A stretch of 60,043 nucleotides of DNA, filler included, from Hausera hauseri (taxonomy: Eukaryota), in assembly GCA_046269625.1 (NCBI GenBank). It is 10 parts of 10 records of this genome, joined end to end, with 100 filler letters (N's around TTAATTAATTAA, not from the genome) between each part and the next. Parts side by side here need not be neighbours in the genome. Positions count along the whole stretch, not along the records: positions 39,616 to 47,445 come from JBJURY010902091.1; 9 more parts are not named here. The stretch is one strand, 5' to 3'. Below, in pieces: positions 19,984-59,264 of the stretch (the stretch's first letter is position 1; each line of letters opens with the position of its first letter). The position numbers and the translations under genes were made by a program. A model generated the notes under the pieces. The model ran no database searches, was not told the DNA's origin, and saw only the letters and a program-made list of their open reading frames with translations.

Positions 19984-20040
19984 TTTTGGTTTAAAGCCAT
20001 CCTTTGTTTTAAGATTAACCTTTATGTTTTTTTTGTTCAG

Positions 20041-23041: not shown

Positions 23042-23479
23042 GTTAAGAGAGAGATTTTGAAACCGTTGGCACAGGACCACACGCATATACCCGCACAGTG
23101 ATTTTAAAATTGTTAAGGTACATTCTGTCTACACAATAACGGTAGACCGAACCGCATAGCAAATAAACTTCAATTGAAACTTACTGTTATATAGTGGGAG
23201 ACGGATAGGAGCCACCCCAATATATAACAAATAAATTTTGATTTCATTCTACTATATAAATTATATAAATGAAATTAATATTTGTTCCATAGACTTGGTT
23301 TTTATGAAGCTATTTTNNNNNNNNNNNNNNNNNNNNNNNNNNNNNNNNNNNNNNNNNNNNTTAATTAATTAANNNNNNNNNNNNNNNNNNNNNNNNNNNN
23401 NNNNNNNNNNNNNNNNCTGTGAGAATGGATTATTAAGTTGAATGCCTTTTATAAGTACAAAGGTGACTAATGAGCCAAG

Positions 23480-31927: not shown

Positions 31928-32069
31928 TTTCCGAAAATACCGATTGGCAGTAACGAGTTGCAATTCTACGTGCTCCTAGCTTCACTGAAATGTATAACTG
32001 CAGAATATAGTCTATTCTACACTTGACTGAAAAGATTCCCATCAATCCGCCCGAAAGACATGCGCAGTT

Positions 32070-35749: not shown

Positions 35750-38700
35750 TGTTATAATTTTGGTCGTTTGTCATTCGTGCCGTTAGGCAATGAAAACAAT
35801 GGATTACGAATTCAAAAAATTTATTTATTCAAACCTGTGAAGGAAGGTTGAGTCGATCGACCAAAAAGTTGTTTCCGTCTTCCAACTTGAAGTATTTCCT
35901 ATATCTTTCCGGGACTCAATGTGTCCCTCGTAGGGTACCTCCAGTGCTTTCTTTGTATGCTTCCGGACGTAGACGAAGTCGGCGTTTTTGATCGTTTTTG
36001 AAATTGTCGGATGAGTATTGTTGTTCGTGGCCATCATTTTTCGACTCTCGGCTGTTTTTTATTAAGTCCGATGCTGACTCCTCTTGTTGGTGGAATACTG
36101 CTCCTGGTATCGCTAAGTTGGCACCGTACACTTTCTGGGCTGGTGATAGCCCGGTCGCATCTGCACAGTTGCGTAAGCATAGAGCTACCGTCGACAAACT
36201 TCTAGTCAGTTCCTTTTGGGATCTTGTGTTGCTGTCATTATGGCTGCTTTCATTGTGTGATGGAGCCTTTCCAATTTTCCATTGGCTTGGGGGTGGTATG
36301 CCGTAGTCTGGATAGCCTTAATCCCCAGTTGTTTGCACAGCTCTTGGAACAAAGCGCTAGTGAATTGCGTGCCTCTATCCGTGACGATTTCGGCCGGTAT
36401 GCTGAAACGTACAATCCAGTCGTCCAGTAAGTGTTTTGATACTGTTTCTGCTGTAATGCTTCCGATGGGTATCCTTTCTGGCCATGACGTTTGTCTATCG
36501 ATTATGGTCAGAATATACATCTTACCGTTCACTGGTGGAAGTGGCCCGATTATGTCCATGTGAATCGAATGAATACGACTTACTGGTGGTAGCGAGATGA
36601 TTGGAGATTTGACGTGCTTGTATATTTTGGCTCTTGCATATTGTTGGCACTCTTGGCACCATTTTGTATATCCTTTGTTATTTGGTGCCAGGTATATGAC
36701 ATTTGAATTAGTTTCTTTGTCAGTCGAATCCCTGGGTGGCCTTGATTGTGGTGTAGTCTGAATGTTTCTTTTCGGAACGACGGTGGTAGTATGACTCTCA
36801 CGTTTTTTGTGAGCAATTCCATTGACGGATTCTGTAGTTCCAATCGTTGTCTGTTTCGAATATCTTCGAATGGCGGCGGAAATGTATATTTCTGTTGTAT
36901 CGATTTTTTGGACGGGTGTTCTTGAGAGTGCATCCGCCACAGCATTATCGGATCCCTGGCAGTATTCTATTTTAAAATTGAATTTGGAGATATATTGCAA
37001 GTGTCTCCACTGGCGGTTCGACGGTTCCTTTGGGTGTTTGTGAGTCAACGGTCTGTGATCAGTATATATTGTGGTTGTAGTCGCCTCTAGAAAATGTCGA
37101 AAGTGTTTACAAGCTTTGTAAATATTTAACAACTCTCGGTCATAAGTACTATATTTTCTTTCGCACTATGATAGTTGTCTGCTGAAGAATGATATCGGTC
37201 TCCCATTTTGTTGATTGTCCGGTTTGCTTTTGTTAGTGTCGTTTTGATCTGGTCGATATGCTGAGTGTGTTCTGCTTCCGTGTCTGACGCTATGGTAATA
37301 TTGTCGAGGTACGCTGCCTCTTAGTGGATAGAGGCGAAGGACGTTATCGTTTGCCCTTTGGAACGTAGCATGGGAATTTCGTAATCCAAAAGGCATAAAT
37401 AGGAACTCGAACATACCAAATGGTGTGGTGATGTCCGTTTTTGGTATGTCTTCTTCTGCCATAGGTATCTGAAGGTACGCCTTCTCCATGTCGATTGTAA
37501 AAATTTCTTTTTCCCCGTGATTTAGAGGATGTCTTCCATCTTGGGAATTTGGTATTTGTCCTGGTAGTCCGGATAAGTATATTCCGTGACAAACTTTGCT
37601 TCTGCTGACGTCTTGTGTGCTTGTTTTGTATTTCTTACTATCCGCTTGGATTATGTTAATACGAAGTTTTCTTTGCTCATAGTCCAAGACGAACCCGACA
37701 TGTGCCAAAAAATCGTCTCCCAGAATTGGTTGATTAACGTCGCAGTCGTGAAAGTTTTAAACGAATTCTCTGTCGTTGATGGTCACAGTTAGTTAAATGT
37801 TCCCCTGGCATTTGATTATCGAATTGTTAGCGGCGTGAAATATGAAGTCGCAGTGTTGCTTCGGCCGGAATCTGGATGTTGGTGGATACGATATGGCTGT
37901 TCTATTAATGAATTAATGCATCGTTCTGAAGGTACCTCCACGATGTCTATTTTTGGGGTACCATGCCGTTTCCTTGCGTGTTGAAAGTGCAAGGTGAGCC
38001 GTCGTCTAATGCTTTGCACTTCATTGCTTTGTTTCCAAATTTAGCGTGATAAAAACAGTGAGCTTTGTTTACCGTTGAGTTTTTTCTTAATCTGCAATAT
38101 GTCATTGTGGAGCTCGTTCAGATGGCTCTGTAGGTCATTCACCGCTGATGTTTGAGGTGTCACGATGGAGATTTCTGAAGTGCACTAGTCATACAATAAG
38201 CCGGCGAGGTCTACCAGTTCCTCGATCTCCTTGTTCATGTACCCCATGATGCTGCTTCGGAGATGGGCCGGCAATGCTTCAAAGAATTTAAACTTTTCGA
38301 TCTCTTCGTTGTCTATGTTGACTTTGTGTAGGCCCTGTTTTATTCTGTGGAACACCAGTGAGAGTTTGTCCGTTCCGTGATGGCGATTGGTTAGTTCAGC
38401 TGCCATGCATGCATATTTAGATTTCTGTTGTTGTTTCAATATGGTCAGTTTGATTTCTTAGTAATTCTGGTTGGAGACAGTTTTTCGCGGTATCCCTGTG
38501 GCTATCTCTTCTGGTAGTACTGACCAGGCATGGTGGAATCTGGTAGTACTGTTCGAGATGGCTGCCAACGCGAAATGCGATTCGAGTTGTTCGAACCAGA
38601 TGTTACACTTGGAGTAGTAGAATGGCGGCGGTTTGATGCCCATTAGACTGATTTCAGCGTGATCGCCAATGGTTTTGGTCCGTTGTCATTGGTGCTATTA

Positions 38701-39515: not shown

Positions 39516-39625
39516 NNNNNNNNNNNNNNNNNNNNNNNNNNNNNNNNNNNNNNNNNNNNTTAATTAATTAANNNNNNNNNNNNNNNNNNNNNNNNNNNNN
39601 NNNNNNNNNNNNNNNACGAAGAGTA

Positions 39626-40948
39626 ATGTGGGACGGTGAAGGATCACCACAATGGGAAAACCTTATGGGTAAAGATTATCTAAAGAAAGTAACAAGAAAT
39701 GTTATGGAGAAGATGTGGGGAAAATTTCTATATTTTGGACAAGCCGCCTCTGGTTTCCTGGCTATCTATTTCATTATCAGTGCGTTACGAACAATATTTA
39801 CGGCCCTCGGTAAAGCATATGGAATACACGCAGCAGTAGGTTGTTCATGGAAAATACTAATAGCAGTGATACCAGCTGTAGCAAGTTGCTTTTTAGCTAA
39901 CCACGATGCGCGATGGAAGAAAAAAATATTGCAGAAGGGAGCCAATAAAGAATCTTTGTATAGCATACCTGATAATGACGGCCCCGACTATGATCAAGGA
40001 AGGACGAAAACAAAATACAAACAAATACCTAATATTAAACAAATAATGTTGAAGACACGAAAATCAAAATACCGACATAAGCTTGTGACAGATCTACCGC
40101 ATCTGGATCCCATAGACGAATATCATGGTCAACCATATAATGAACAATTTATAGCAAATCCTTCAGCTCCTAGATACGTGGTACATGCGGGATTGTACCC
40201 AATAAATCAAGTATCGCAGATGCGACAAGATTGTGAGGAAGGCGCAAGACCATATAGGCATGAACCAACGTGCAAAACCGACGATAAAGAAGAAAGATCA
40301 TATACAAGACCAGAAGTAGAAATCGAGGTAAACGGATATCCCATGATGGCTCTATTAGATACTGGATCTACCACCACCATAATGGGAAAAAGTCAACTAC
40401 CTAAAGAATTAAGAAAGAAGTTAAGAAGACCGAAAACCACTTTAATAAATGTAGGAGCGTTTGGTACGGAAGAAGAAATAAAGATGGTTCTTGACGCAAA
40501 TATTAAAATCGGTAACCAAACTGTGAAACACACGATAAGAATAGCCGAGAATTTGACAAACGAAATCTTAATCGGGTGTGATATATTAAGTCAATTAGAA
40601 AATGTATACATAGACGTAAAAACCAGCCAGTTGAAAACGTTTGATGAAGATAAAAGTAGAGGAAAGGTCGCGCTAATAAAAGATATCGTAATACCACCCC
40701 GATCTGAGATAATAGTGCCCGGAAAGATAGAAAGTCCAATACTATCAACAGAAGTATGCTTCGAACCATTCGCACAAGTAATGGAAAAGTATGAAATCTT
40801 GATAGCCCCCCATGTAGATAAAGTAAGGGAAGGAAGAATTCATTTGCGAATTTGCAATACAACAAATAAAGAAAGAAGATTACGAAAGAACACAAGATTG
40901 GGCGAAGTGACGACCAGTGAAGGTATAATTAAACAAGAAACAGGCTAA
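39626..40948 (+). CDS. polyprotein part 1: chuvirus-glycoprotein-like membrane-anchor region, aspartic protease, degenerate dUTPase-like beta domain (5' truncated by contig start)
   Basis: WGKFLYFGQAASGFLAIYF..AYGIHAAVGCSWKILIA; LLDTGS and ILIGCDIL; IVIPPRSEIIV..RICN. Confidence 0.75.
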   Translation: MWDGEGSPQWENLMGKDYLKKVTRNVMEKMWGKFLYFGQAASGFLAIYFIISALRTIFTALGKAYGIHAAVGCSWKILIAVIPAVASCFLANHDARWKKKILQKGANKESLYSIPDNDGPDYDQGRTKTKYKQIPNIKQIMLKTRKSKYRHKLVTDLPHLDPIDEYHGQPYNEQFIANPSAPRYVVHAGLYPINQVSQMRQDCEEGARPYRHEPTCKTDDKEERSYTRPEVEIEVNGYPMMALLDTGSTTTIMGKSQLPKELRKKLRRPKTTLINVGAFGTEEEIKMVLDANIKIGNQTVKHTIRIAENLTNEILIGCDILSQLENVYIDVKTSQLKTFDEDKSRGKVALIKDIVIPPRSEIIVPGKIESPILSTEVCFEPFAQVMEKYEILIAPHVDKVREGRIHLRICNTTNKERRLRKNTRLGEVTTSEGIIKQETG

Positions 40949-40981
40949 ACGGTATCTGATATAGATAAAATAGAAAAATTA

Positions 40982-43447
40982 ATGAAAGAAAAGTTAAAAG
41001 GAGAACCGAGTAAAAATATAAAGAAGGTTAAAACAACTAATATTAATTGGCACGAGAAGTTACAGAATTGTCAAATTTTAACACAAGAAGAAAAGAAGAC
41101 GCTAATAGAATTATTACAAAAGAATAATGCCCGGTTTGCCCAAAATGACTATGATTTAGGTACAATGAACGCGATACAACATACTATTAAATTGAAAGAA
41201 GGACAGGATAACCCAATCAAAAAGAGACCATATCGATTAGCATACGATAAAAAACAAGAGGCGCGAAAAATAATAAAGGAAATGAGAGAAAACAAGATTA
41301 TTCGACCAAGCTGTTCCCCTTGGACGGCTCCTGTAGTAATGGTCAAGAAAAAAGACGGAACTATGAGATTCTGCATAGATTATCGGGCATTAAACGAAAT
41401 TACTGAAACGGATACGTACCCATTGCTCAGGATTGATGAAATATTAGACAGACTCCACGGATCGACTATATTCTCAACCATAGATTTGCAAAAAGGCTAT
41501 TGGCAAGTGGAAGTGAAGGAAGAGGACAAACCAAAAACAGCTTTCTCAATTGGAGAAGGATTATGGGAAATTAACAGGATGCCATTTGGGCTGAAGAACG
41601 GACCACCAACATTTCAGAGAGGAACAGAACTTCTATTGTTGGACGCTCCACATGCTATGGTGTATATTGATGATGTAATAATAGCATCACCAAATTTCCA
41701 ACAACATTTGAAAGATCTGCAAGATCTCTTTGACATATGTGAGATCATGGGTTTGAAGATAAATTCGAAGAAATGTTCTTTTGCCCAGACAGAAGTAGAC
41801 TTTTTGGGACATAGAGTAGACAGATATGGTGTAAAACCACAGGATAAACTATTGGGAAAAATAAAAGATTTTCCAAGGCTGACAACAGTTAGAGAACTAC
41901 GCCGATTCTTAGGCTTGGCCAACTATTATCGGAGATTTATAAAGGATTTTAGTAAAATCGCAAAACCTCTATATGAGCTATTACGTGAAGATCTAGATAC
42001 GGTAATTTGGACCACCGACTGTCAAAAAGAATTTGAATACTTGAAAGAAAGACTAGTAACTGCTCCGATATTGATCTACCCGGATATGAACAAACCATTC
42101 ATAGTAGCCACAGATGCAAGCGATTATGGAGTTGGAGCAGTGCTATCACAAAAGGGTGAAGACGGTAAGGAACACCCAGTAGCCTATGCATCACGAAAAC
42201 TCAACAAGCATCAAAAGAAATACGCCGTGATTGAGAAGGAACTGTTGGCAGTAATATTTGCGCTAGAAGTATTTTCACCGTATATTAGTGAAAATAAACC
42301 ACTATTAATATACACGGATCATCGACCATTACAGTGGTTGAAGCAACACGAAAATCCGAATAGCCGATTGTTACGATGGGCTCTTAAATTACAACCTTAC
42401 ACATTAAATTTCCAGTATAAACCTGGAACGAGAAATGCCAATGCAGATTATCTATCCCGAATGACAGAAAATCCAAAGGTAAAGAAAGAAGTAATAGCAG
42501 CCGTCTGGAGTATGGACGGATCAGTAGAAAAGATTAAACAAAACCAACAGGAAGACTCCGAAATAAAAGTAATAAAAAATTTTATAACGAATAAAGTATT
42601 GCCAGAAGATAAAGAATTAGCTAGACACTTAGCACGATTCGGTGAAGCATATGAAGAAAAAGATGGATTTTTATATTATATCCACCAAGACGGACCAGCA
42701 TTGGTGATCCCAAGGAAAAATAGAACGGTTTTATTAACACAATATCATGATGGATTACTCGGCGGGCATCAATCAACCAGGAAGACACTCAGTAAGCTGA
42801 AACGAAAGTATTTCTGGCCTACAATGATGAAGGATGTACAAGAATGGTGTGAAAGTTGCAAGCTTTGTGCCACACGTAAAAATACTGGATCGAAATTTAA
42901 AGCGCCGCTAAAGGTATGGGACAATCCCCCAGCACCATTCGAATTTACGGCAATGGATATAACAGGGCCACTACCATTAACCCGAAATGGAAACCGATAC
43001 ATTTTAGTCTTTATTGATTACTTTACTAAATGGGTTGTAGCCATACCAATGGCAGACATGAAGGCAGAGACAATTGCTGAAAAGTTCGTGGAAAATGTAG
43101 TGTTTAATTACGGAGCCCCGAGGATTATTCTAACTGACCAAGCCTCCAATCTAACTGGAACTGTAATGCAGTCCATATACGATATTTTAAAGATACTAAA
43201 GCTACGCTCTACACCAGGACATCCAGAAAATAATGGATTAGTTGAGAGGTATATTGGAGATTTGAAAGGAAAACTGCAAACAGTAGTTAATACCAGACAA
43301 GACGATTGGGACGAGTATGTCAATGCATGCGTATTCGTAAATCAAACGTCAGTTCACGAAGCCACTAAAGAAACACCCTTTTATCTTATGTATTTACGGG
43401 ATGCAAGATTACCCATCGACTTGGATTTTAATGTGAGACCTGTCTAA
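40982..43447 (+). CDS. pol: Pol: reverse transcriptase, RNase H, integrase core
   Basis: CIDYRALN, MPFGL, VYIDD, ATDAS, YH..GGH..CESC.LC, MDITGP/TDQA/LVER triad intact. Confidence 0.95.
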   Translation: MKEKLKGEPSKNIKKVKTTNINWHEKLQNCQILTQEEKKTLIELLQKNNARFAQNDYDLGTMNAIQHTIKLKEGQDNPIKKRPYRLAYDKKQEARKIIKEMRENKIIRPSCSPWTAPVVMVKKKDGTMRFCIDYRALNEITETDTYPLLRIDEILDRLHGSTIFSTIDLQKGYWQVEVKEEDKPKTAFSIGEGLWEINRMPFGLKNGPPTFQRGTELLLLDAPHAMVYIDDVIIASPNFQQHLKDLQDLFDICEIMGLKINSKKCSFAQTEVDFLGHRVDRYGVKPQDKLLGKIKDFPRLTTVRELRRFLGLANYYRRFIKDFSKIAKPLYELLREDLDTVIWTTDCQKEFEYLKERLVTAPILIYPDMNKPFIVATDASDYGVGAVLSQKGEDGKEHPVAYASRKLNKHQKKYAVIEKELLAVIFALEVFSPYISENKPLLIYTDHRPLQWLKQHENPNSRLLRWALKLQPYTLNFQYKPGTRNANADYLSRMTENPKVKKEVIAAVWSMDGSVEKIKQNQQEDSEIKVIKNFITNKVLPEDKELARHLARFGEAYEEKDGFLYYIHQDGPALVIPRKNRTVLLTQYHDGLLGGHQSTRKTLSKLKRKYFWPTMMKDVQEWCESCKLCATRKNTGSKFKAPLKVWDNPPAPFEFTAMDITGPLPLTRNGNRYILVFIDYFTKWVVAIPMADMKAETIAEKFVENVVFNYGAPRIILTDQASNLTGTVMQSIYDILKILKLRSTPGHPENNGLVERYIGDLKGKLQTVVNTRQDDWDEYVNACVFVNQTSVHEATKETPFYLMYLRDARLPIDLDFNVRPV

Positions 43448-43606
43448 CATTTAATGGAGGTGCAGGACTATAAACAATTAATTTAAAAACGTCTTCAGTT
43501 AGCCTACAAAACGATTTGTGGAAATCAAGAGGAGTATAAATCCAAATACAAGAAATACTACGATAAGAAGACCAAACAGCCAAAAATTAAAGTAGGTGAT
43601 CAAGTA

Positions 43607-45241
43607 ATGTTATACTCACCAGCAATAAAAAAGGGTAAAACCTCTAAACTGGATAGACCTTACAAAGGTCCATACGAAGTAGAGAAGGTAAGCCTGCCAA
43701 ACATATGTTTGAAGAAGAATAATACGTCGGTAAAGGTCCATATTAATAGATGCAAACCGGCAGCTCGAAGAAGTGAGTTAAGGAAAGGTGAAAAAGAAAT
43801 GGTACTAAGTATAAGAGAGATAAGACAAGAAAAATCTACTTATAAAATGTATTGGACAGTAAAAAGTCTATTGTTAACTATCATCCTCGTATTACCCCAG
43901 ATAGCCGGACAGATGACAGAGCAAGAAATTGAACGAGCAAAGGTACGACATGCGGCGGCCATAAACGAGGATCTATGGTTAAAAAGTTTGAAATATCAAA
44001 TAACGTATTCTATGAAAGGCCAAAAATGTATTCACTGGTATGCCACAAGACGAATGTCTAGCGAGTATATTATAAGGATACGAACAACCCCAATCTACGG
44101 TTATGAGAGGAACTCTGATGAGCGAAATAATGATTGTATATTACGGTCATCCATAAATGAAAGAATATGTCCAATAGATACCTCAGGAACACACGAAGTG
44201 CATCTTACCCTCATGAAGAAGCAAGGAGACTACTATCATAGTCTATATACAAAGTTTCACAGGTATATTCGAGTCCCAAATAGACATGAAATGAACGAAA
44301 CACTACTCGACGAAATAATACTCAGACAGGTAAAGATAAGACCAATGGGATTTAAAAGTGGACGAAGTTGCCTGGAAATTAGGAGCTTGATAGAATTAGA
44401 ATACATTCGATGGATAACAATATCCATAAAAGAAACAGGAAGACGAAAATTGTCCAAATGCAGAATAACAGTAGACCAACAACAAGTTTGCTGCAATGTA
44501 ACAAGAGGCAGAATATACGAGGTTAAATATACTTTATCACGAAAGGAATACGGAAAACTGAGAAATAAAACGCACAGAAAGGGACCAACGATGTATATAC
44601 TATATAAAAATCAGAAAGAATATAACGATATACCCGAAAAAATAGCGCCCTCTGTACAGCCCTCGACTGATAAAATGGAAAGGACTATTCTAGTTAAACC
44701 CTACACATCATACTATCGGGCAAAACGATCTATATGGGAGAATGTTACTATAATAGCAGCCCCGTCTGCGTTAATCATTTCAGTCAGACCAGACTTAGAT
44801 TTTGTAAAAATCAAATTCAGTTGCAAGAAACAAGATATAGTGGTAGCTAAAGGAATCATAACCCCGGATGATTTGGTAGTACCATGTGCAGCCTTAGATC
44901 CAAACACCCGATATACAATAATTTTACAGTTGTTAGACGATAAAGACAAAGTAACATCTACTAAAATAATGACAGCAATCACGAAAGTAAAATATGACAT
45001 AACCGTATTTCATAGGACCAAAACGATTAACCATAAGATAACACTTGAACTCACCCGAACAGTGTATGCACACTCACGGTTAGAAATAATATGTATAGGA
45101 ACAATAACCCCCGTTATATTGGTAATCATAATAACAGTAGCAAGTAGATTCGCATGCAGGCGACTCAAAAATAGAAGGAGCTGGGTCAGAATCGATATGC
45201 GTAATCTAACGAACCCGTTAGATACCGACAATCCCAGCTGA
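43607..45241 (+). CDS. integrase C-terminus (GPY) in frame with accessory type-I membrane protein (ORF-A), copy 2
   Basis: YKGPYEV..VHINRCK, then signal-like MYWTVKSLLLTIILVLPQIAG, Cys-patterned domains, RAKR, FN3-like LDPNTRYTI, TM IICIGTITPVILVIIITVA, basic tail. Confidence 0.8.
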   Translation: MLYSPAIKKGKTSKLDRPYKGPYEVEKVSLPNICLKKNNTSVKVHINRCKPAARRSELRKGEKEMVLSIREIRQEKSTYKMYWTVKSLLLTIILVLPQIAGQMTEQEIERAKVRHAAAINEDLWLKSLKYQITYSMKGQKCIHWYATRRMSSEYIIRIRTTPIYGYERNSDERNNDCILRSSINERICPIDTSGTHEVHLTLMKKQGDYYHSLYTKFHRYIRVPNRHEMNETLLDEIILRQVKIRPMGFKSGRSCLEIRSLIELEYIRWITISIKETGRRKLSKCRITVDQQQVCCNVTRGRIYEVKYTLSRKEYGKLRNKTHRKGPTMYILYKNQKEYNDIPEKIAPSVQPSTDKMERTILVKPYTSYYRAKRSIWENVTIIAAPSALIISVRPDLDFVKIKFSCKKQDIVVAKGIITPDDLVVPCAALDPNTRYTIILQLLDDKDKVTSTKIMTAITKVKYDITVFHRTKTINHKITLELTRTVYAHSRLEIICIGTITPVILVIIITVASRFACRRLKNRRSWVRIDMRNLTNPLDTDNPS

Positions 45242-45352
45242 CGATTATGGTTAGGGATTGCAATAGAGGCAACCCCAAGTAAAAAGATAACTAAACGACA
45301 TCAAGTTATCTTACTCGCTAAAAATAACAATAAAACCACAACGATTACCTAT

Positions 45353-46675
45353 TTGGTATGTTTGATAACCGTTGTGTTGTGTATAAGTATCATGATAAAC
45401 GACCCATTAACTTTTATATTTACAGTCGCAGCAGCAACCTTCCATCAAATCCAGAATATTCATCGATCAAAGCATTGGTATGGTAACGCCAAAACCCACA
45501 TTATTAACGCCAGTCCTGCCAGTCAATACTATGTCTCCCATAATGACAATATGACCAGCTTGAATTATCCCCAGACACCGCAGATACCGAATAATTTGAA
45601 AGGTTATAGTATGGCCAATCGATCTCTGGCCTTGATGCAAATAACTAAAGCTACTTCGTTCCTCCTAACAGATATTATAATTCTACCTGATCGTTTTCAC
45701 TCAATGGGTGTGTACAGTATTGTAGGGCAAATCCAAATCAAGACAACGGACAGAAAAACTTCTATCAAAGGCGATCTAATAAATTTAGACTCAGAACATG
45801 GACTTGCTTTCGACTTCTCATTCCTAAAAGATAATACATTCAAGATTCGTTCTTGTACCAATAGGGTGATCCTAGCACTGGAAATAATAAAAAACGAAAA
45901 ATTCTATCCCAGTCTTCCTGAAGGTAAATGTTTTCACTTGCCGGAGCCCGATTACGTCAAATACAGAACTATTCCTTATCGCAGAATAGAAAAAGTTTCT
46001 GATAACGATATGGTCGTAGTAGCCGTCAATCTGGCCTGCGACCAATGGAATCAACTTCAGCTAACTGAAGCCTCAGTCTTAAATCTTAACGGTGACACAT
46101 TATTCTATGGCATTATTACCCCGAGACAACGTATCAATAATTTTGATACACACATAACAGGTCTCACAGAATTGAATATCAATAACCAAACCGATCCAAC
46201 GGATTTCTATCGGAAGGTGACCGAAGTTATCACAGATAGAATAGTAATTGGAGCCGACGTGGTAGAGATGGTGATAAACCATCTCAAATGCCCCATCCGA
46301 CGGATTGCAGGAGTACGTGATATTTTATGTCACGAGGACGTCATCCGCCGGTACCAACTATCAACAAACACCTACAAAGAATTAGCCCGCAAATTTTATG
46401 ATACAAAGGGCTTCACTCTCAGAAGTACTGCGTTAGCTCAATGCTACCAGTCAATATACAAACAGCTAAAGTGGACGGATGAATACATTGCCCAGAGCGC
46501 GGCCTCCAATCAGGTGCGAACAACACCAACTACATCTCAAGGTGGAAGAAAACGAAGAATCCAGTTGGACGAAACACTAGTACTAGACGATGAAGTATAT
46601 GAGCCTGAGGCAATTCGATACAAGTCAAGAACCTCTGGCAAATATATGCATGTACCCATAACGTTGGACCAGTAA
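45353..46675 (+). CDS. accessory ORF-B, copy 2: DEDDh-exonuclease-like domain with substituted catalytic residues (true start probably via splicing at 45425)
   Basis: VVAVNLA..LTEASVLNLNG..LFYGIITP..INNFDTHITGLT..IVIGA..VRDI. Confidence 0.72.
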   Translation: MVCLITVVLCISIMINDPLTFIFTVAAATFHQIQNIHRSKHWYGNAKTHIINASPASQYYVSHNDNMTSLNYPQTPQIPNNLKGYSMANRSLALMQITKATSFLLTDIIILPDRFHSMGVYSIVGQIQIKTTDRKTSIKGDLINLDSEHGLAFDFSFLKDNTFKIRSCTNRVILALEIIKNEKFYPSLPEGKCFHLPEPDYVKYRTIPYRRIEKVSDNDMVVVAVNLACDQWNQLQLTEASVLNLNGDTLFYGIITPRQRINNFDTHITGLTELNINNQTDPTDFYRKVTEVITDRIVIGADVVEMVINHLKCPIRRIAGVRDILCHEDVIRRYQLSTNTYKELARKFYDTKGFTLRSTALAQCYQSIYKQLKWTDEYIAQSAASNQVRTTPTTSQGGRKRRIQLDETLVLDDEVYEPEAIRYKSRTSGKYMHVPITLDQ

Positions 46676-47545
46676 TAAATTGAGGACAATTTCTCAAAAC
46701 CCCCGTCGAGTTGTTAACGAACTTTACAATTGAATAACGAAATTCGAAATTTATTGTTGACATTGTTGACATTGCGAACCTTGAAATTAACTATTTACAC
46801 GACGAATTATTTAACTACTATTGAAATGATCTATGATCAAATAATATCATCGTGTCATTTACGTGATCATCAAATTTATACCTTTGTGCCATTTGCATGA
46901 TTTGTGGAATTTTCTAAATGTTTTATGAAATTTTGATTATACTACATGTATTATTCCTACGCATCATGGAATTTTTATCATGATAATACCATATGAAGAC
47001 AAGTATATAAAGAACGATTTATGGTACACAATTCACAATTATTTACGACTATTTACAATTGTTTTTTTGATCATGTCGTCACGTAAGTTTTGTGGTTCAA
47101 TGTATGTTCTGTTTGCTAAATTGGTCGTTTTATATGTATTGTTAAAATAGAGTTATCGTATAATAATATTTGTTGAATTTTGTTTTATAAATAAACTCAA
47201 TAACTAATTAACCTTAAGTAAAAGTGGCAGAATCTCCGACCAGGTAAAAGCGACCTGACGGAGGCCTCAATAAAATTTAAGTAAAAACATAAGATAATAA
47301 TCAGTAAGTGAGTAAAGCAGTACCTAATTTCTCATACCCCTCTTGTAACACATTACCTACTTATACTTAGGTAAGATTAGCCTTACATCAGCTCTCCCAA
47401 CGATAACGTATACTTTGTTCAATATTCTGTAAAAATAAATAAATANNNNNNNNNNNNNNNNNNNNNNNNNNNNNNNNNNNNNNNNNNNNTTAATTAATTA
47501 ANNNNNNNNNNNNNNNNNNNNNNNNNNNNNNNNNNNNNNNNNNNN

Positions 47546-48945
47546 ATGATGATAATAATGACGATGCACTCCCACCAAATGATTTCAGAACAATCGATAT
47601 ATATCCGAACTTCGATGATATAAAAATGACAGAATCATGTGACGTTTTTCTACGTAGAAGCAGAATTACCGGATCTTATCGATCTGTTGATGATTACTTA
47701 GATGTACAATTTCGACTTATGAAAGAGGATTTTGTTCAACCTTTTAGAGAAGGATTGAAAATGTTTGATAGTGATCGTTGTAAGAACAGGGTCGACGTTC
47801 GAGTCTATGAGGGTGTTAGATTATTGCGATGCTTGCCATTTGATCGAGAGGGCATTATTTACTACTTAAAATTTCGAACATCGAATCTTACAAATGTAAA
47901 CTGGCGTCAAACAAAACGTTTTATCTATGGTTCTTTCTTGTGTTTATCAAAGACTTTCCGAACTTTATTGTTTGCAACTGTAGCTTATAGTGATATGAAT
48001 GAGTTGGAAGAAGGTGAGGTAGCTGTAAAGTTTCATAACTCAGAACCGGAATATGGTGTCCATTACACACTGATTGAGCCCATCACCATGTTTGAAAGCT
48101 ACCGCCACGTTTTGCAGAAATTAAAGGACACAAATAATACGAATTTATGTTTACAAAACTATCTCATCTTTCCAAATTCATCCAGTCCTGTTCAATCTCC
48201 AAAATATTTGCTTGAGAATCCAACACTAACATTTTTGATCGGTGAAACTAGTCTCTCTCTCTCCATTGAATTCCGAAGCAGTTTGGCCTAATCTATCCAG
48301 TCTTGGACTGGACGAATCCCAGTTTCGTGCCTTTAAAACAGCTATAACGAAAGAAATATCGATTATTCAAGGTCCTCCTGGGACTGGAAAAATCCACGTT
48401 GGATTTAAAATTTGTAAATGTCTTTTGGAAAATGTCCAACGAAAGTTACCAAATTTCGGACCCATTTTAGTCGTATGTCATTCTAATCACGCCTTGGACC
48501 TTTTTCTTAAAGGAATTTGTGATGTGACCAACAAAATAGTTCGAGTTGGTAGCCAAAGTAAACCGGAAAAATCCGAATGTTTTCATTGTTACAATACAAA
48601 AAACGTGCTGATTTAACGGATTTTATGGAAACTAAAAGTAAAATGTTGAGCGAACTGAGATAGAAACCGATCTTTTGCATGCGCATACAAAGATAGAAAT
48701 CGCCGAGTTAATTCGACCGATTTACGATCGCCTTGACAACCATGAAATGGTTTTGAAATATGACAACTTTCAGTCGATGGATACGAATTTATACTTTTTC
48801 CATCATACAAATCCGGAAAATTCGTGTTATGATAGTTTTAGTTATTCAAATCAATTCGAGATGGAATTCGTGCTAGAATTCTGTAAACATCTTATTAAAT
48901 CCTGCACTGATGGTTCGAAAATCACGATTTTGACGCGTATATTCA
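47546..48945 (+). pseudogene. ZNFX1: ZNFX1-like SF1 (UPF1-like) helicase fragment, frameshifted and internally deleted
   Basis: PPNDFRTIDIYP, YLDVQFRLMKEDF, NWRQTKRFIYGSFLCLS, LDESQ..IIQGPPGTGK, VVCHSNHALD. Confidence 0.85.
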
Positions 48946-49609
48946 TGGGGTTGCGCAATGTCGTATTGTTGCTTTGGGCTACTGATCAAAAACGATTTGT
49001 CAATGAACGGCTGCTACAGAAATGTTTTTTAGTTCATGGCTTGGTTAGAGTAGCCCTTTTGACATAAATTGTACCGGATTCCCTTAGGATTTATGGAATT
49101 CATGGTTATATTAATTATGGTTTCACCAATTACCCGGTTGATGTCTTCTGTAATCAGCCAAAAAATTTGTTCTCGTTGGAGCTAATTTGTCTGATATTGC
49201 TGCTGCTCCGCATTTGAATAGCTTACGGGCTAGTGTAACGATTTTAGAAGAGAGTGCACCAGTGAAAGAAGCTGGAAAGTTGATACCGATGAAATTGAAA
49301 AGGTTCGAATTGGTTTCATCGGATAATCATACGTTGTCCCACCAAATGATTTGGTTCTTATCGGCAATACTCAGATTTTTACGGGATAATACCGTGTTGA
49401 AAATACTTCTCGACGAATTCGGAAACCAAATTATCACTTTCGAATGTAAATCGATTGATGATGTATTTATATTTTCTGTAAATTTTTCCAAATTTCCAGT
49501 ACCCGACGATAACAAATTTCGTGCGAGATATTTAATAAACAGATTACCGACTTATTATACGCTCACCTATTTAACACTACGTTTCTATTTATTAAAATTT
49601 GCATGTGCT

Positions 49610-49976
49610 ATGAATAACCAACTTCGAACTAACTTGTCTCACAAGGAATTGTCCTTGTTCAAAAGCATACTGAAATGCTACGACCAGAAATAATTTAAAA
49701 ACGGTTTAAAATTAACCAAGCAAATTTTATCAAATCCAAAATTTTCGGAACATGGCGAAACGTTAGCAATGAAAGGACTTATATAAGTTGTATGGGTAAA
49801 CGAGATGAAGCCTATGACCTCGTCAAAAGTGGAAATCGTAATGATATCAATAGTTCAGTTTGTTGGCACGTTTATGAGTTAGTCCAAAAGTTATAGGCAA
49901 TACGCTGAAGCCATGAAATGTTATTTGAGAGCATTGAAAATGGATAAAGATAACACACAGATATTGCGCGATTTGA
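49610..49976 (+). pseudogene. NAA15: NatA auxiliary subunit (NAA15/NAA16) N-terminal TPR fragment
   Basis: [66 protein letters not shown]; stops and frameshifts, no introns. Confidence 0.85.
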
Positions 49977-52900
49977 GGGGAAATTTGGTCACCCTGAAAT
50001 TTGGTTCCCGCCGCGCCGGGCGGAGGTCCGCTGCGTCAACCCCACGCCGGTCGGTCAAACGGCGCCTTTCGCGTCGGTCCCCACCACGCCCCCCGGCGCA
50101 CTACTTCTCTATTTTCCTTTTCCTCAATAATACGCACATTTAGACGCTCACTACACAACATTTACTTATTACAGCCCTTCGTACCTTCATTTCTTTCTTA
50201 ATTAACTCTTCCGAATTTTATCTCACCCATAACCGCGCTAGCATATCTCTCACCGGAACCCTACCATCTTTCTCAAGCCGCATTTGCTCCACATACATCT
50301 TTGTATCCGTGGTGGCATGAACTCTTCGCCAACAATTGACACAACGGATAAAACCACCACAAAACCAAAATCTGTCATATCAGTTCAAAAACCCATTTCT
50401 ACTCCTGTTAACAACCTCCCATCCATGATATCTTCCGCTCCTTTCCCTCACTGCACCGAATTCTTCATTTACAACCAAGGCTCCAGCAAAAATTTGTTGC
50501 AATTTCACCAACTTTGGCTGCAGGCAAATAAAATTACCGAATATTTAACTAAGGCACATAACCTTCTCTACTTACTCCCTAATAACATCAAAACCCGCTT
50601 TCACAACATCATCGAAATCTTTGAACTTCCAGACACATATTCCCAACTCTGCAACGCAGTTCTTAAGATTACAGAACCTTTCATGGACACGATCATACAA
50701 CGTTTCTTCCACGACAACGTTATAGGCACCCAACAGCCATCAGAATTCTTACGTACATCCTTAGCACATCAACATACCCTCGGCGTCACTAAGGAACACA
50801 ACCCAGATCTATTGCGCCACTATTTCCTCAATGCGTTACCTATCCAAATCCGGGCCCTACTTACCGTGGTGGAGGACTCCACGCTGCTTGAGAAATTGGC
50901 CGAACTAGCCGATAGGACACATGACGCCCTACACGTAAATTCTCCACCAGTTATTTCAGCAGCAGTTACCGCTAACGATAATATATCCATAGAACAACAG
51001 CTTAATCGGCTACGTGCTGAAAATATTGCACTGCATGCAACAATCAACAATATCAATAATAAATTAAACGAATTGTCTCTGTCCCGTCGAGGGGGTTTTG
51101 CCACTGACCGTGCCCGTTCTGCGTCTAGAAACCGCTCACCATCACCTGCGCGTTCGTCGATCTCCTATTACCACAGCAGATTTAACATTAATGCCCAGAA
51201 GTGCTGCCTAGGGTGCAAATTCTAAAACAAGAATTTTTCCTCCAACACCGTTGTTTGCATCTACCATGCAAGATTCAAAAACCAAGCTCGTAAATGTATT
51301 CCAGGCTGCATTTTCAAATCATACACGAACGACGGACGTACTGCCTTTCCTTTTAATAGTCGTCCAAATTCACCCTTTCAAAAAAACTAAGTTGGCCGCC
51401 AGAAGTCACGGTAAACTCTGGCGATGGCACTACTTCACTTTCTGAACGCCGACACATCTCTTTTGCTGTCTTTACTCTAAAGACTGCAATCACTGCTCCT
51501 ACAACACAATCTGTTGATTTCCTTATCGATACAGGTGCAGCGATTTCTTTCTTACCACAAACCCTTCCTGTACAAAATTCTCCATGCAAACTTAAGCCCT
51601 TATACATTGCTTCAGGCCAAACGCTGCACATTTTTGGCATGGCCAAATTATCTTTTACTTTACCAAATTTTCCTTCACCTTTCCACTGGACGTTCACAGT
51701 CGCTAACGTCCAGACAACAATTCTAGGAACTGACTTTCTCTCACATTATAATTTACTGGTTGACTGTAATCAGCGATGTTTGAGGAACAGCACCACTGGC
51801 GACATTTCTAGACATGTCAATAGCATTTCGACTACCGCACAGTTGACCGGAATGCGGAAGTCAGTCTTAAAAAAGTCAATGAATAATTTGATTTTTTATA
51901 ACAACAATTCCATTCGTAAATTTTTAAATAATAATATTGATATACGATCGAGGTTCGATGCCGATGATTGTGGTACTGCTGCCAACGTTGGTTTATTCAG
52001 CGAAGTCACCTCATCCAACACAATTTTCAATTCGACCATCTTACACCAAATACCACTTGATTGCACATCACCTAACAACTCACAAATTGCATCCGCTACT
52101 ACTCAAGCCGTTTCACCACTTCCACCAAATCTCTCACAGTTACCTACAACTTTACAACAATTCGTTAACACATCATATCCACGAGTACTTAAAAAAGACC
52201 GTACATTTACTCCCGCCAACAGTACTTTACACCATATAGTTACATAGAACCAACGCCCAATACGCCAAAAGGTACGGCCTCTGTCATCTCGACGTAGACA
52301 GGCCGTAGAAGTCGAATTTCTTGAACTAAAACGTTCCGGAATAGTACACCGTTTCAAATCTCCTTGGTCGTCACCTTTATACGTCGTACAAAAAGGACGG
52401 TACTTTTAGACCATGCTGTGACTACCGACAGCTGAACAACTTGACTATCATGGATGCGTACCCTTTACCACTCATCAAGGATACCTTGTATCGTCGTAAT
52501 TCAACCACCATCTATTCGACCATTGATTTAGCTAAAGCATACCATCAAATACCGGAGGAACCCGAAGACAGTAAAAATTGCTGTAACTACTCCTTTTGGC
52601 CTCTATGAATACCTGTTTATGCCATTCCGTTTGCGGAATGCTGCATAAAATTTTCAGCGACACATTGATTCCATTCTTTCAGATTCCCCGTTTGCAAACC
52701 CTTACATCGATGATATTCTAGTCGTTTCATCTTCTGCAAACAACAGGAGAAACACCTTCGCGCAATATTCCAACGCCTTAACTACCATAATCTCGAAGTC
52801 AATTTTGACAAATGCCATTTCTTCAAAAAGCGCATTAACTTTTAGGCCACGTTATTACACCAGACGGTCATTCTTCCCAATCAGACCAAGTCGAAGCTCT

Positions 52901-52995
52901 TAAAAATATCTAGTTGCTATGTACAACCACTGAAATGCGCAGCTTCTTTGGTACACTATACTTTGTACATAAATACGTACCATATTGCTCCGAAC
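49977..52995 (+). mobile_element. Ty3/gypsy (CsRn1-like) PBS-gag-PR-RT, same family as 13440-16431
   Basis: PBS-like tggtcaccc (tRNA-Trp-like); gag 50284-51225; two CHCC knuckles; LIDTGA; PYIDD. Confidence 0.92.
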
Positions 52996-53095: not shown

Positions 53096-53172
53096 ACTAC
53101 TACTTCTGCCAAAGTCTCGGCCTTTTGGTCTATTAACGCTATAAGCTCGATGAAATGAGTCATTCTGTCTAC
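53096..53172 (+). repeat. 77-bp exact terminal direct repeat (= 59967-60043)
   Basis: actactacttctgcc...cattctgtctac identical at both contig ends. Confidence 0.97.
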
Positions 53173-53279
53173 ACAGGTCAAAAGGTATTTGTTGTTTTTG
53201 TGAGGCAATGGTCCTACAATATCCATGGACATTGCCTGCATTGGTCTATCCGGCACATTGATGGGTTTAAGTTCGGTGA

Positions 53280-55132
53280 CTTTCCCTTAGTCATTAGTGA
53301 TCTCAAACGATCCTTACGTTTCCGTCTCAATGACGGGCTGCGGCCTGTACTCTTTGTAATCTTAAGTATTAGTGGTTCCATAAATTCCTTTTCTTCGTCG
53401 GTCTCCACCTTTTGGCTTACCTTTTTCGCCATATACTCTGGTTCTGCGACTAAATATACTTCGTCCGGAGTCTCAGGTTTTCCTGTTTCGTCTAACTCTT
53501 TCTTTATCGTAGAAATATTCTTATTCCGTGCCATATCAATAAGCCTTCGCGGGTCAATGGAACGTTCATATTCAGTTTTCGGTTCACGCGGGCCATGGTA
53601 AATTTCTAACAATGGTAATTTATGCTCGTACGCGTTTCTGGCCACTAAGACTTTAGGGTCTTTAGTGTTAGGTGGGGCCTTTAAGAAACGACGTAAGTAT
53701 TGTATCTCAATGATCATACCTGTGCCTTTACGGACACCGTAAATTACTTCTAAGTTTTTGTTTTTAATTACATTAGTTTTACTAGGTTCCACAAACGAAA
53801 TACTTCGTGGATTTGGACAGGATCTCGCTATGTGTCCTTCTTGTCCACATGAGTAACAAATTAAGTTGCAATTTCGCCGACTTTTGTTGACCGTCTTCAT
53901 TAACCGGGGATTTCGATCTACTCGGATTCCTATTGCAATTCTGATGTTGCGGGGCTTGTCTGGGATCACCATACTGGCAGTTATCATAACTTCGGCAGTA
54001 ATTCTGTCGATTTCCTTTGTTAAAATCTCTGGAACTATCTAGGCGTCTATCCGGATCGTGGTTTAGTTTACTAAATGAACTATTACGGCTACTATCAAAA
54101 TTCCGATTATCATATAGACTACCTTTGTGATAATGGTTATTGTTCTTATTACGGTCCCCATAATTCTTGTTAAATCGCCTATCATTTTTATTATTCCGAT
54201 TTCTATCGCTTCGATCACTTTGATCATTATTTCGATCATTTCTGTCGTTGTTTCTGGTATATCTGTCCAATGTCATTTCTAAGTCCTGAGCTAATTTCAA
54301 TGTTTTATCAAAGTTCTCCGGGAGCACTAGAATCAATTGCTTTACTATGTCTCTAGACCAAATACCATTTATTAACTGCGTCATCATCATGATGCCTAAA
54401 TCTGGAGGACTTGCCTTTTCTGCGGCTTTGCATTTTGCTTCGTTTTTAGCCTTGGCTATGTTTGCTATCCTTGAGGTGCTTACGTAACTGTTTCCCAATT
54501 TCTTTAAGGCAAACACCAATTGGGTTATTGATTTACCGTTCTGTTGTACTCTATTCTAAAAAGCCATGAGTTTTTGTTGAGGAGTTACAGTCGGCAGTAG
54601 TTTTCGGTTCAGGGCTACCACCAGGGAGGACTAGGTTTTCTTTTCGTCGTCAGTGAGCTCGCTATAGGCATCATCGGCCAAATTCTTTAAATATAGTGAC
54701 AGACTCTTAATCATTACGTTAGATGCAAGTCCGGCACCTTCTGCGTGCAGCTTATAAATTCTCAGGAATTCATTGAGTCCGTCTGTGTCTCCGTCGTACG
54801 CCGGCAGATTTAGAGAGTCAAATGTAAAAATGTCCGGTTTCTGCGCTACTGCTTGACTTTCAATCATGTTTTCAACGTTTATCAGATTTTGCTTAATTAT
54901 CTTACGGGTTCTAATTCTTTTATCAGGAACTTTAAATTTAATAGACTGTTTAGCAGCGTTTAAGTCTATGGGTTCAGTATTAGCTAAGTTTGTTTCCGAT
55001 AAGGTGCGTCTACTCAACGTCTTACCTTGTCTGTATACTTTATTGCGTGTTTGGCGAAGATTAATATCCTCCTTACCGTTTAAGATAGAATTTAAACTAT
55101 CGTCCGAATTGTGTCTATCAATATTCGTTCAT
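53280..55132 (-). pseudogene. gag: gag with capsid-like region, N/R/D-rich linker, CCHC knuckle and ~180-aa downstream extension
   Basis: LPAYDGD..EFL..YLKNLADDAY; CYSCGQEGHIARSC. Confidence 0.82.
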
Positions 55133-55389
55133 GCTTTATTCAATTTTTCCGTTAGTTAAGGAATAATCAATAACTCTCCTTCCCAATAAACTATTTTTAT
55201 ATTTGCAAATTTACTGAAGATTCAGTGGTTAATAATAATAAATTTTCATTATTAATTTCTAATACTAATATTTATTTTCAGTTTCACTTTCAGTTTTGTT
55301 TTCCAGCTTCACTTTCTGTTTCATTTTTCAGTTTCGTTTTGATTTAGTTAAGTACAATTTTATTTTACTGCCATTTTACTACATTTCTC

Positions 55390-57800
55390 CCTGAACTGCA
55401 CTCTTGGATGTGCCAATTTCGTCAGAAGAGGTGCCGCATAATCTGTTCAATCGTCCGCGCAAGTTCGCTTCCGAATCCGATTCATCTTGCGGCGATGGCG
55501 GGTCAAAGTGGTAGGACGTAGTGCGTTTTGGGGGCAATATCTCCACTATTTTTTATTTTATCCATTGGCGTAGTATCTCAGTCTTGTAGCCTCAGCTCTA
55601 CATACAGTGCAGGTCGTCTTCCCATTTTTCAGGGTTTACGTTTCTAAACAGTACCGGCAGTACTTGTGGGTACAGTCTTCATTATCCAACACCACGAATC
55701 CTTGGTATAGACTGGCATCACAAACATGGCACTCTTCTTTTTCTCTTCCATCTATGTCTACAAGGTTCTCGTCAACTTCTATTCGTTTAAATAGTAATCC
55801 ATTTTTATCTTGATATAGGTACCCATATAGTCTTTTTTGTTTTGGATCGATGGAGCTTTCTTGGGGTCATCTGATACGGTGACTAACGTCCATTCAACGA
55901 TTTCTTGTTGGTCTAAGTCTAGTATTCCAATCTTCTTATATTGCCTTTTTAATTGTATTTGAACTTGGGTATCTACCAGAATGGTTAATCTATTGGTACC
56001 GTTTTTTGACTGGAATATTGGGGGTAAGTATTTGTCAAAGGTTATGTCCTCCCGAGCGTATCCATTCCCACTTACGATTCTCCTAGGAACAGTGGATACG
56101 TAGAATATGGCTTCCTTGATCTTGCCTTTTCTGTAATATTTGGCCATGACGAGCATTCTGGTATACTCCTTTACTTGCCCAAATTTTGTGACTTTGATAT
56201 TTTCATCCTTTTCCCAATTCTTCCAAAGAACTTTCATTTCCGTTTTACGGGACTTTGTATCGGCAGTTCTCATCTTGATCTCGTCGGGATTTTCGGCTTT
56301 TTGTCTTTTGGGTTTTTCGCTATGCTCATTTATTCGTTTGTTTGGCGTAGAGCTATTAGCAGGTGACTTGTTTTTTTCCACTTGGTTCTTACTAGTTTTG
56401 CTCTTTTTCTTGCTAATATACTCTAAGAAGGAAGTTTTAGTCTTTTGTCCTCTCAAAGTTTTGGGGTTACTTGAATTTTTTTCAATTTCTTCTCGGGCTC
56501 GGCTGGTCAACGGTACCTGTTGGCTGTTGGGCATTTCCACGGAACTATTATGAACGGTTACTCGGAATCGGTTGTGTTATTGGGGTTCGATTTGTCTAGG
56601 AGGTGGGTGTTCGTTAAACCCTTTTCGAAATTTTTGTATCAAGATCTTTGGGTTGTGGCCGGACATCACATTCTGTATGGAGTTCCTGGGTTTCCACTCA
56701 TGTTCCCATCTCAACGAGGCGTAAATATTCTTTATAAGCTTCGTACGCGGACTCGCTGACATTAGTTTAGGAAATTTAAATCGTTCGCCATTCATGGCTT
56801 CTAACATCATTTTGAAATGTGATTCACGTGATGCTGTCGGAAGTAGTCACCCTCTTTTCTTCATCAAAACGGTTTCTACTCGACTTGCAACCGTTGGATT
56901 CCGATTCAGTTCGCGAATTTCGGCTATATACTCTTGTCTAATTCCCAGTCGTTCCAACATTTCGTGCACTCGGAATCCGGTTGCAATACATCCACATAAG
57001 AAATGGCTTATATCTTCCTGTATTTCGAAGAAATCTTCCCCTGCTTCGAGTTGTACTTTCGTAATTCCGGTAACATCGGCAAAGGTGTCCTTCACCCTAG
57101 TTCTCGGTGCAATTATTTTGTTTATAATTTCTTCCCAGTTTGTATTTCGAATATCGACTTCAATCGGCGCATACCATCCATCATCCTTTTCTCCATAGTT
57201 CACGGCTAAAATTGTAGTATTGCAGCCGTCTGGAATTAATTTATAAGATTCGCCATTTTGTTCTATTTCATCTTCTGAAGGCTTTTGCATGCACATTAGT
57301 GGTGGTAGCGGACTCATTAATTCTGTCCGCCAGGTCATTTCGAACATGAGTATGGTTGGGAGTTCTGCGATTCTGAATTCCAAAGCATAGTTCATGAGAC
57401 TATGGCAACATAACTCATAAGTGCTAAATTTCCATTGTTGTTCGTTTTGTGTGCTCCAGGATTGTCCTACGATTCTGTATTGGATTTCTCCATCAGCTAC
57501 ATGTACGTACAATTACTGATGAGTTGGTTCATATGGAATCATATCTCTCAACAGGTATGCTCGTGCGTCTCTGGGGCTTCGCACTGCGTATAGCCGAATC
57601 AGTCGATTGTCCTCTAAACCCCATTTCAACCAATTTGGTATTTTACTTTCCTGACCGATTTCGACATAAGTTTTGTTTTTCAGATTCCCTCCAATTTGAC
57701 GATAATGGTTTGAGGACTGTTACATGCTGTTGCAGGAAGTTGTCGATGTCATGTTCGGAGCTGGTTGCTGAATTCTTTGCCTTTTTGGTCATATTTACTC
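55390..57800 (-). pseudogene. accessory ORF-B, copy 3 (pseudo-exonuclease, basic linker, domain X, C3HC4 RING)
   Basis: ORFs starting at 57512, 56810 and 56540 share one frame; ILAVNYG..PIEVDI..IIAP..VTGIT; CHVC..CTHKYCRYC..CTVC. Confidence 0.75.
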
Positions 57801-57897
57801 TGCTGAAATAAAAATAAAGGTCAATGCTAAGACAGATCATCCTTTTGAAACAAAACATTTTCTCTGTCTGATGATAGGATAACCTGGTCTGTAATTG

Positions 57898-59237: not shown

Positions 59238-59264
59238 CGTTTTCTTTTCTTTATTCGTATAATT

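Follow-up and report, generated by a model that had tools for sequence, protein, structure and literature searches.

An exonuclease domain present in three diverged copies in the genome of Hausera hauseri was described, in a sequence-only reading, as a catalytically dead relative of REX4 and ISG20 which is maintained as a pseudonuclease. This raises the questions of whether the domain is dead, whether it has been kept or is decaying, and what a retroelement might use it for. The window analysed here (the whole stretch of 60,043 nucleotides) consists of ten contigs of ~4–8 kb each which were artificially joined, and it is not one locus; the contigs are separated by N44-TTAATTAATTAA-N44 linkers and neighbourhood across these linkers has no meaning. 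Homology of the three copies was upheld, with tblastn from copy 2 finding the other two beyond chance (E-values of 4e-10 and 1e-9). Each copy lies on its own contig, and the gene itself is broken in copies 1 and 3.

Retroelement context of the accessory gene

Copy 2 was found on a contig which begins inside env and which carries, in order and in one frame, a fusion glycoprotein, protease, reverse transcriptase (RT), RNase H, integrase, a membrane-protein ORF and the accessory ORF (Table 1), the arrangement being that of PR-RT-RH-IN with an envelope of the gB/chuvirus type before the protease. The contig matches the Pfam families Monjiviricetes_fusion (E 1e-14) and RVP (E 1e-11). Its pol is broken in frame by the three stops of the contig that read TAA (40946, 43445 and 43484), and TGA stands at the natural ORF end. 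The 464-aa membrane ORF of copy 2 matched no Pfam family at the cut-off. No paired LTR was present among the listed repeats of these truncated contigs, whose 3′ regions were read by eye.

Copy 1 maps onto P0002, an open homologue of 870 aa, as six pieces in several frames. Both share one layout, namely an AlkB-like domain, the dead exonuclease (~20640–21050 in copy 1), a basic tract, an uncharacterized domain and a RING finger (22160–22320 in copy 1; E 3e-7 in P0002), and P0002 shows how the copy 1/3 type is laid out when intact. A RING remnant lies near 55730–55600 in copy 3, and the RING finger marks the copy 1/3 lineage, which is sister to copy 2. The domain between basic tract and RING, found at 21637–22152 (+), 55780–56200 (-) and residues 566–740 of P0002, is 42–45% conserved, and its K-S-x-x-G motif resembles, by eye, the C-terminus of copy 2 and of P0001, a full-length homologue of the copy 2 accessory protein with 53–58% identity.

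A gag with a zinc knuckle was seen solely on the copy 3 contig, on which neither protease nor RT was visible, and this contig possibly represents an internally deleted non-autonomous family. Its ends (53096–53172 and 59967–60043) have 77 identical bases in common, as in a circular assembly.

The order integrase, membrane ORF, accessory gene is the same in all three window copies and in two element lineages. The integrases of copies 1 and 3 are 73–84% identical with each other and 38–44% identical with that of copy 2, and the accessory proteins of copies 1 and 3 are 22–25% identical with that of copy 2. By blastp the membrane ORFs of contigs 1 and 3 match one another and not that of copy 2. This second accessory gene encodes a hydrophobic N-terminus, an ectodomain of ~410 aa, a single membrane segment and a short tail, belongs to no known family and is present although the element already encodes a fusion glycoprotein. 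On the context of the three window copies, the gene under study belongs, as an accessory gene, to Ty3/gypsy elements which bear an envelope.

A branch-point, T-tract and CAG motif was recognized by eye upstream of the accessory gene in 3/3 copies, the motif ending at 20040 in copy 1 and at 57803 in copy 3. A spliced subgenomic mRNA is the probable source of the accessory protein. Spliced expression is treated as a lead, since a preset splice model (background 0.4 sites per kb) found two of the three sites, those of copies 1 and 3, which are related, and the copy 2 site failed it.

Table 1. Positions of the retroelement features, contigs and linkers within the window.
Feature	Position	Strand	Remarks
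Contig of copy 1	16532–23316	+	
Integrase pieces and membrane-protein ORF pieces before copy 1	17453–19983	+	membrane ORF 18593–19983
Copy 1 accessory gene	20003–22540	+	frameshifted pieces of a ~870-aa P0002-type protein
Contig of copy 2	39616–47445	+	
Chuvirus/gB-type fusion glycoprotein end	39617–40948	+	in-frame fusion to aspartyl protease; cut by contig start
Ty3/gypsy RT-RNaseH-integrase	40949–43800	+	right boundary approximate
Membrane-protein ORF, 464 aa	43847–45241	+	hydrophobic N-terminus, single C-terminal membrane segment
Copy 2 accessory ORF	45242–46675	+	477 codons open, counted from stop to stop
Candidate splice acceptor (TTAAC, T-rich tract, CAG)	45407–45425	+	upstream of AlkB-like domain; lead
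AlkB-like double-stranded beta-helix domain, model residues 1–147	45461–45901	+	predicted model; lacks HxD...H iron motif
ISG20/REX4-type DEDDh exonuclease fold	46007–46483	+	five catalytic positions all non-canonical
Contig of copy 3	53096–60043	-	integrase, membrane ORF (57898–59264), accessory gene, then gag with zinc knuckle
Copy 3 accessory gene	55380–57803	-	P0002-type; in-frame stops, frame change
Linkers	4344, 10776, 16432, 23317, 27747, 33978, 39516, 47446, 52996		

Elsewhere in the window, fragments of mariner-, piggyBac- and Tc5-type transposases were found, together with degraded copies of another, env-less gypsy-type family at 6850–10741 (-), 13440–16479 (+), 35916–38457 (-) and 50242–52903 (+). 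A fragmented ZNFX1-like helicase gene with several short frames lies at 47548–49693 (+) (Pfam ZNFX1 E 7e-23, AAA_11, AAA_12); lying on a separate contig, it is either a gene of host RNA defence or a pseudogene. A SOCS box (E 5e-8) terminates a host-type gene at 30319–31975 (-). Taken with the transposase fragments, the SOCS box and the ZNFX1 fragments suggest that the genome is that of an animal. The ORF at 25725–26240 (+), which had no Pfam match at E 0.05, is presumably a fragment of a protein-primed family B DNA polymerase of the Polinton or adintovirus type. ORFs with internal repeats (two units of ~780 nt, 73% identical) occupy 4507–6202 (-), with no Pfam match in the single piece scanned. 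No tRNA or Rfam match was detected within the window.

Fold and catalytic positions of the two-domain protein

The exonuclease was found to make up the second of two domains in its protein, the N-terminal 147 residues being modelled as an AlkB-like domain. The copy 2 model (window 45461–46516, built on a 52-sequence alignment) reached pLDDT 93 and pTM 0.88; a fold from a 6-sequence alignment (pLDDT 45) was discarded, and a homodimer prediction that made no use of the alignment scored 0.00, which counts neither for nor against a dimer. As the second half of the model matches ISG20 (Z 17.2, rmsd 2.6, 155 residues aligned), the call of an ISG20-type DEDDh fold holds. The exonuclease half also matches ISG20L2 (Z 16.2), and Foldseek placed it on the ISG20-type fold at E 3e-9. 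Taken singly, the copies stay below the threshold of Pfam RNase_T; a profile built from all three matches SDN1, ISG20L2 and ISG20 at E-values from 1e-7 (SDN1) to 2e-3, and the 52-row family profile reaches 9e-32 to ISG20L2 and 4e-20 to ISG20.

The motifs read from the sequence were all recovered: ExoI as AVNLA at 46022 in copy 2, AINYG at ~20667 in copy 1 and AVNYG at ~57206 (minus strand) in copy 3, the latter two positions being counted from translations, and ExoII as GADVVEM at 46250 in copy 2, GYQVERM in copy 1 and GFRVHEM in copy 3. The substitution had been taken as a conserved D-to-N change, and this was not supported. In the HMMER alignment to SDN1, the Asp of ExoI is matched by Ala and its Glu by Asn, and the same register was obtained when 6/6 close relatives were set against a profile made from 28 motif-intact members. 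An ungapped block test from which the two catalytic columns were omitted gave this register for 5/6, with P0002 preferring the D-to-N register. The first structural pairs (model 183 with ISG20 6, model 181 with ISG20L2 176) agree with Asn-on-Glu if the strand is ungapped, a register which the model inherits from its own alignment. It is thus most likely that the invariant Asn replaces the ExoI Glu and that Ala replaces the Asp and, with Asn on Glu rather than on Asp, the argument from a D-to-N change falls.

ExoI reads A-x-N instead of D-x-E in 6/6 close members. The ExoII Asp is absent, being Met in copies 1–3 and P0002 and Thr in P0001 (P0004 stops short), and both ExoIII positions are Leu in copy 2 as in P0001, copies 1 and 3 breaking earlier. 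No ExoIII His occurs in the copy 2 segment, whose exact register shifts between methods. In copy 2 the catalytic positions are thus Ala at 46022 and Asn at 46028 (ExoI), Met at 46268 (ExoII) and Leu at 46418 and 46433 (ExoIII); since all five are non-canonical, the description as dead is strengthened, and on these residues the copy 2 lineage very likely encodes a pseudonuclease. A nuclease still active through other acidic residues near the site would have to draw on acids which copy 2 does have near the motifs (Asp194, Glu203, Asp266 and Glu269 of the model), of which Glu203 is common to the six Asn-type proteins. Five of these, however, extend as far as Asp266 and have D, N, N, Q and R in its column, the Glu269 column varies and the ExoIII segment of copy 2 lacks His, and we regard retained activity as very improbable.

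When the whole two-domain model was searched, the N-domain matched ALKBH6 (Z 13.0, rmsd 3.0, 141 residues aligned), ALKBH5 (12.8), ALKBH7 (11.9) and E. coli AlkB (11.6), while no chain of the cupin type scored above Z 10.5 (over 99 residues). Plant-virus replicase polyproteins ranked first in a viral fold search, matches which we take to be their AlkB domains. The whole N-domain thus aligns with AlkB proteins (135–144 of 147 residues, Z 11–13), yet identity is 4–12% and the HxD...H triad is present in 0/37 members: a first-region HxD/E occurs in 3, a second-region His in 3 others and both in none, the regions, like the RxxxxxR positions, being assigned from strand order in the model. The RxxxxxR on the last strand is also absent, with its last position Glu in 36/44 and its first position variable. 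Conserved instead are Tyr7, Ile-Pro-Asn-x-Leu-Lys at 42–47, His85, Gly89 and Glu141. With hhalign the probability against bacterial AlkB was 0.3%, using a shallow profile (28/87 sequences, Neff 3.9); the exonuclease control likewise gave no signal. No AlkB family appeared among the listed Pfam or NCBIfam matches of family members, and an Atlas search with the N-domain returned no usable match. As modelled, the N-domain is AlkB-shaped and outside the AlkB enzyme family, the likeness being one of fold alone. PHROGs, NCBIfam and Pfam supply names for the exonuclease half only and, as Pfam and NCBIfam are blind to the first domain, such genes would be annotated as unknown ORFs.

Family history and constraint on the dead domain

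A profile search returned 610 proteins at E <= 0.001, of which the best 150 were analysed, so that the family is under-sampled. A domain tree made by quick search comprised 149 of 153 domains, 4 being left out as short. In it the window copies fell among 52 rows which were set apart from 97 cellular REX4-like rows with an SH-aLRT of 97 (best 150 of 610). The A3 alignment likewise has 52 rows from the best 150 of 610 (P0120 out, P0004 in), and in it D-E-(D/E)-H-D is kept in 28, degenerate in 22 and truncated in 2, with the ExoI D-x-E in 30/52. The ExoIII His is found in 28/28 intact members and the D-E-E-D variant in 17/28; P0151 and P0152, found later, also have an intact motif. Pfam RNase_T was matched by 24/52 rows and DNA_pol_A_exo1 by 2/52 at weak E. 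Searched against the window, family members gave no match beyond the three accessory genes.

Whether most homologues keep D-x-E depends on where one looks: it is retained by 115/150 among the matches listed, but by 0/3 of the closest full-domain relatives. By group, among the best 150 of 610, it is present in 85/100 cellular-type and 30/50 family proteins. In the wider family (best 150 of 610) the nuclease motif is mostly kept, and the AlkB iron motif was never seen. P0003, P0005, P0006 and P0007, on the cellular side of the tree, are proteins of 730–800 aa with 3–4 tandem REX4-like domains, several with degenerate motifs, and would seem to be a separate case of dead REX4 domains.

Among the matches listed, the Asn is confined to the three copies, P0001, P0002 and P0004, and the remaining dead members have other substitutions. 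Holding the Asn-type rows together (5 tested) raised the likelihood by 4.3 (p-AU 0.72), and these sequences fit one inherited loss. Repeated independent catalytic loss is not claimed, as the AU test does not reject a single origin for the 17 dead rows tested (p 0.196). A two-domain tree (41/52 rows, 11 short ones dropped) requires 3 changes, with P0017 nested among intact members. The motif was probably lost once in the window lineage, the fold being preserved across elements whose integrases are ~40% identical. An N-domain profile from 23 motif-intact members recovered copy 2 (E 3e-6), P0004 (6e-11), P0002 (1e-5) and most branch members; P0001 was reached at E 0.01, level with the best non-family match (0.009).

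The claim of a maintained pseudonuclease, as opposed to recent decay, survives for the lineage, on open ORFs and constraint, but without its argument from a conserved D-to-N change. Maintenance in the lineage follows from the same losses being present in the open ORFs of copy 2, P0001 and P0002. Between copy 2 and P0001 identity is 58% in the AlkB-like domain, 59–60% in the exonuclease, 42% in the tail and 29% in the leader, and 49/2000 runs of a neutral simulation, in which indels were not modelled, reached this divergence stop-free. Copies 1 and 3 differ at 0.62 of third codon positions against 0.43 of first and 0.35 of second. Neutral decay of a captured host gene would agree with copies 1 and 3 being broken and with the three stops in the pol of copy 2, through which all three insertions are defective, so that the measured constraint belongs to their ancestors. 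It is at odds with ORFs open at 40% divergence (those 49 neutral runs), with the third-position excess and with the separation of the two-domain family from cellular REX4 (SH-aLRT 97), and is accordingly given very little weight.

Four dead pairs have N-domain/exonuclease identities of 0.58/0.59, 0.52/0.56, 0.64/0.63 and 0.37/0.48, and the dead exonuclease domain diverges no faster than its partner domain. Purifying selection acted on the dead domain, and it was weaker there than in intact members: over all pairs, exonuclease identity is 0.24 in dead and 0.36 in intact members, with N-domain identity equal at 0.18 and 0.19. Pro-Arg at 221–222 of the model is present in 23/23 dead members, with Arg in 30/100 cellular proteins, and Arg286 is retained in 20/22 dead members. 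The Arg of the REX4 'DYRT', found in 96/100 cellular proteins, is variable in dead and intact family members alike.

It is somewhat unlikely, in our estimate, that the dead exonuclease is a structural passenger, kept by its packing against an AlkB-fold domain in which (or in the tail or RING) the function resides. A passenger would explain why identity has dropped to the level of the N-domain, why Gly, Pro and hydrophobic residues make up most of the columns that are kept, why both domains are placed by the model (pTM 0.88) and why the canonical DYRT Arg is gone. Against it, Arg222 (dead 23/23, intact 23/28) and Asp245 (dead 22/23, intact 22/28) vary less among dead members than among intact ones; they form a candidate binding site and could equally form a salt bridge.

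Candidate roles and known systems

The likeliest reading, to which we would give a little less than an even chance, is a non-catalytic binding role by which the element RNA is shielded from host decay or silencing. The ancestor would have been an RNA 3′–5′ exonuclease with a non-catalytic AlkB-fold partner domain; the dead version would bind instead of cutting, holding RNA ends or occupying a host RNA-decay or small-RNA factor, and the element RNA would be protected by this binding. In the copy 1/3 lineage the partner so bound may in addition be ubiquitinated through the RING finger. Such a role is suggested, as far as sequences go, by the fold together with motif loss, the N-domain profile matches of copy 2, P0004 and P0002, the conserved gene order, the constraint on the dead domain, the third-position excess, Pro-Arg 221–222, Arg286, the RING and the dead DEDD domains of piRNA pathways described below. 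Counted against it are the clearly relaxed constraint on that domain, the variable DYRT Arg, the low N-domain score of P0001, the defective elements, an element context that comes from the three window copies and the copy 2 splice site that fails the preset model. A dedicated antagonist of silencing or RNA decay, in which the AlkB fold would read modified RNA, the exonuclease fold would clamp 3′ ends and the RING would destroy a host factor, is considered unlikely.

A housekeeping function in the element cycle, namely that of a non-catalytic RNA chaperone or particle component for packaging, 3′-end protection or reverse transcription with no part in host defence, would suit the fixed position of the gene within the element and the presence of basic tracts in copies 1 and 3 as in P0002. 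To our knowledge, other gypsy-type elements do without such an accessory protein, and the fast divergence, variable tails and RING gain look more like host conflict, for which reasons we hold this function to be quite unlikely. In its favour, auxiliary replication roles are proposed for retroelement exonuclease ORFs in the accessible part of one report (PMC5408684).

That report, as far as its accessible part goes, describes an accessory RNase D-like DEDDy ORF3 with intact residues in the rotifer Juno and Vesta LTR elements and in Terminons (PMC5408684), and rotifer retroelement exonuclease ORFs are echoed in accessible parts of two others (PMC6338049; PMC6431247). The window protein is like this ORF3 in being a 3′–5′ exonuclease-type ORF placed after pol, and the D-E-E-D variant is likewise shared (accessible part of PMC5408684), but it differs in being DEDDh, two-domain and dead. 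GAG-ENV-POL errantiviruses with a gB-type envelope are reported from Nematoda, Bryozoa and Platyhelminthes in the available part of another study (PMC13524379). The copy 2 element resembles these in its class III fusion glycoprotein before protease-RT-RH-IN, and the window elements differ from the errantiviruses of that part in adding two ORFs after the integrase. Exonuclease, DEDD and AlkB are all unmentioned in what is available of this source (text and seven supplements), and the accessible parts of PMC12440569 and PMC13172572 hold nothing on the accessory gene.

The accessory protein has fold and profile similarity in common with ISG20, ISG20L2, REX4 and SDN1, from which the window lineage differs in lacking the catalytic residues, in its AlkB-like fusion, in being retroelement-borne and in forming a separate branch. 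Dead DEDD domains which keep RNA binding in piRNA pathways, those of Maelstrom and EXD1, are described in the accessible part of PMC5408684, and that of PMC10123124 describes a dead DEDDh in the C-terminal domain of amniote PML, beside a RING-containing region. With Exuperantia (Z 9.9), and as far as these partial sources describe them, Maelstrom, EXD1 and PML are like the accessory protein in having a nuclease fold without catalysis; they are, however, host proteins, and the likeness is one of fold and description, not of close homology.

A viral DEDDh domain acting against innate sensing is known from the arenavirus nucleoprotein. Its exonuclease had an Atlas feature score of 0.89, which is a lead; it differs as an active enzyme within a capsid protein which has no AlkB-like domain. 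Malik and colleagues reportedly noted an exonuclease in one of the Cer elements of C. elegans (Malik et al. 2000), and the nematode GAG-ENV-POL elements said to be treated by Sacco et al. 2022 may cover such ORFs. An AlkB fold joined to a DEDDh domain on a retroelement was not found in the open full-text literature; no earlier description of the two-domain accessory protein came to light there, and it may have been described before.

It is largely an open question whether animal LTR retroelements encode RNA-silencing suppressors of their own, and the accessory protein is a specific candidate. Its family offers natural controls, with one two-domain architecture occurring in nuclease-intact, nuclease-dead and RING-bearing forms. 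If the reading as a dedicated antagonist were true, the >50 clusters, among which both active and dead forms occur, would constitute an undescribed class of retroelement counter-defence proteins.
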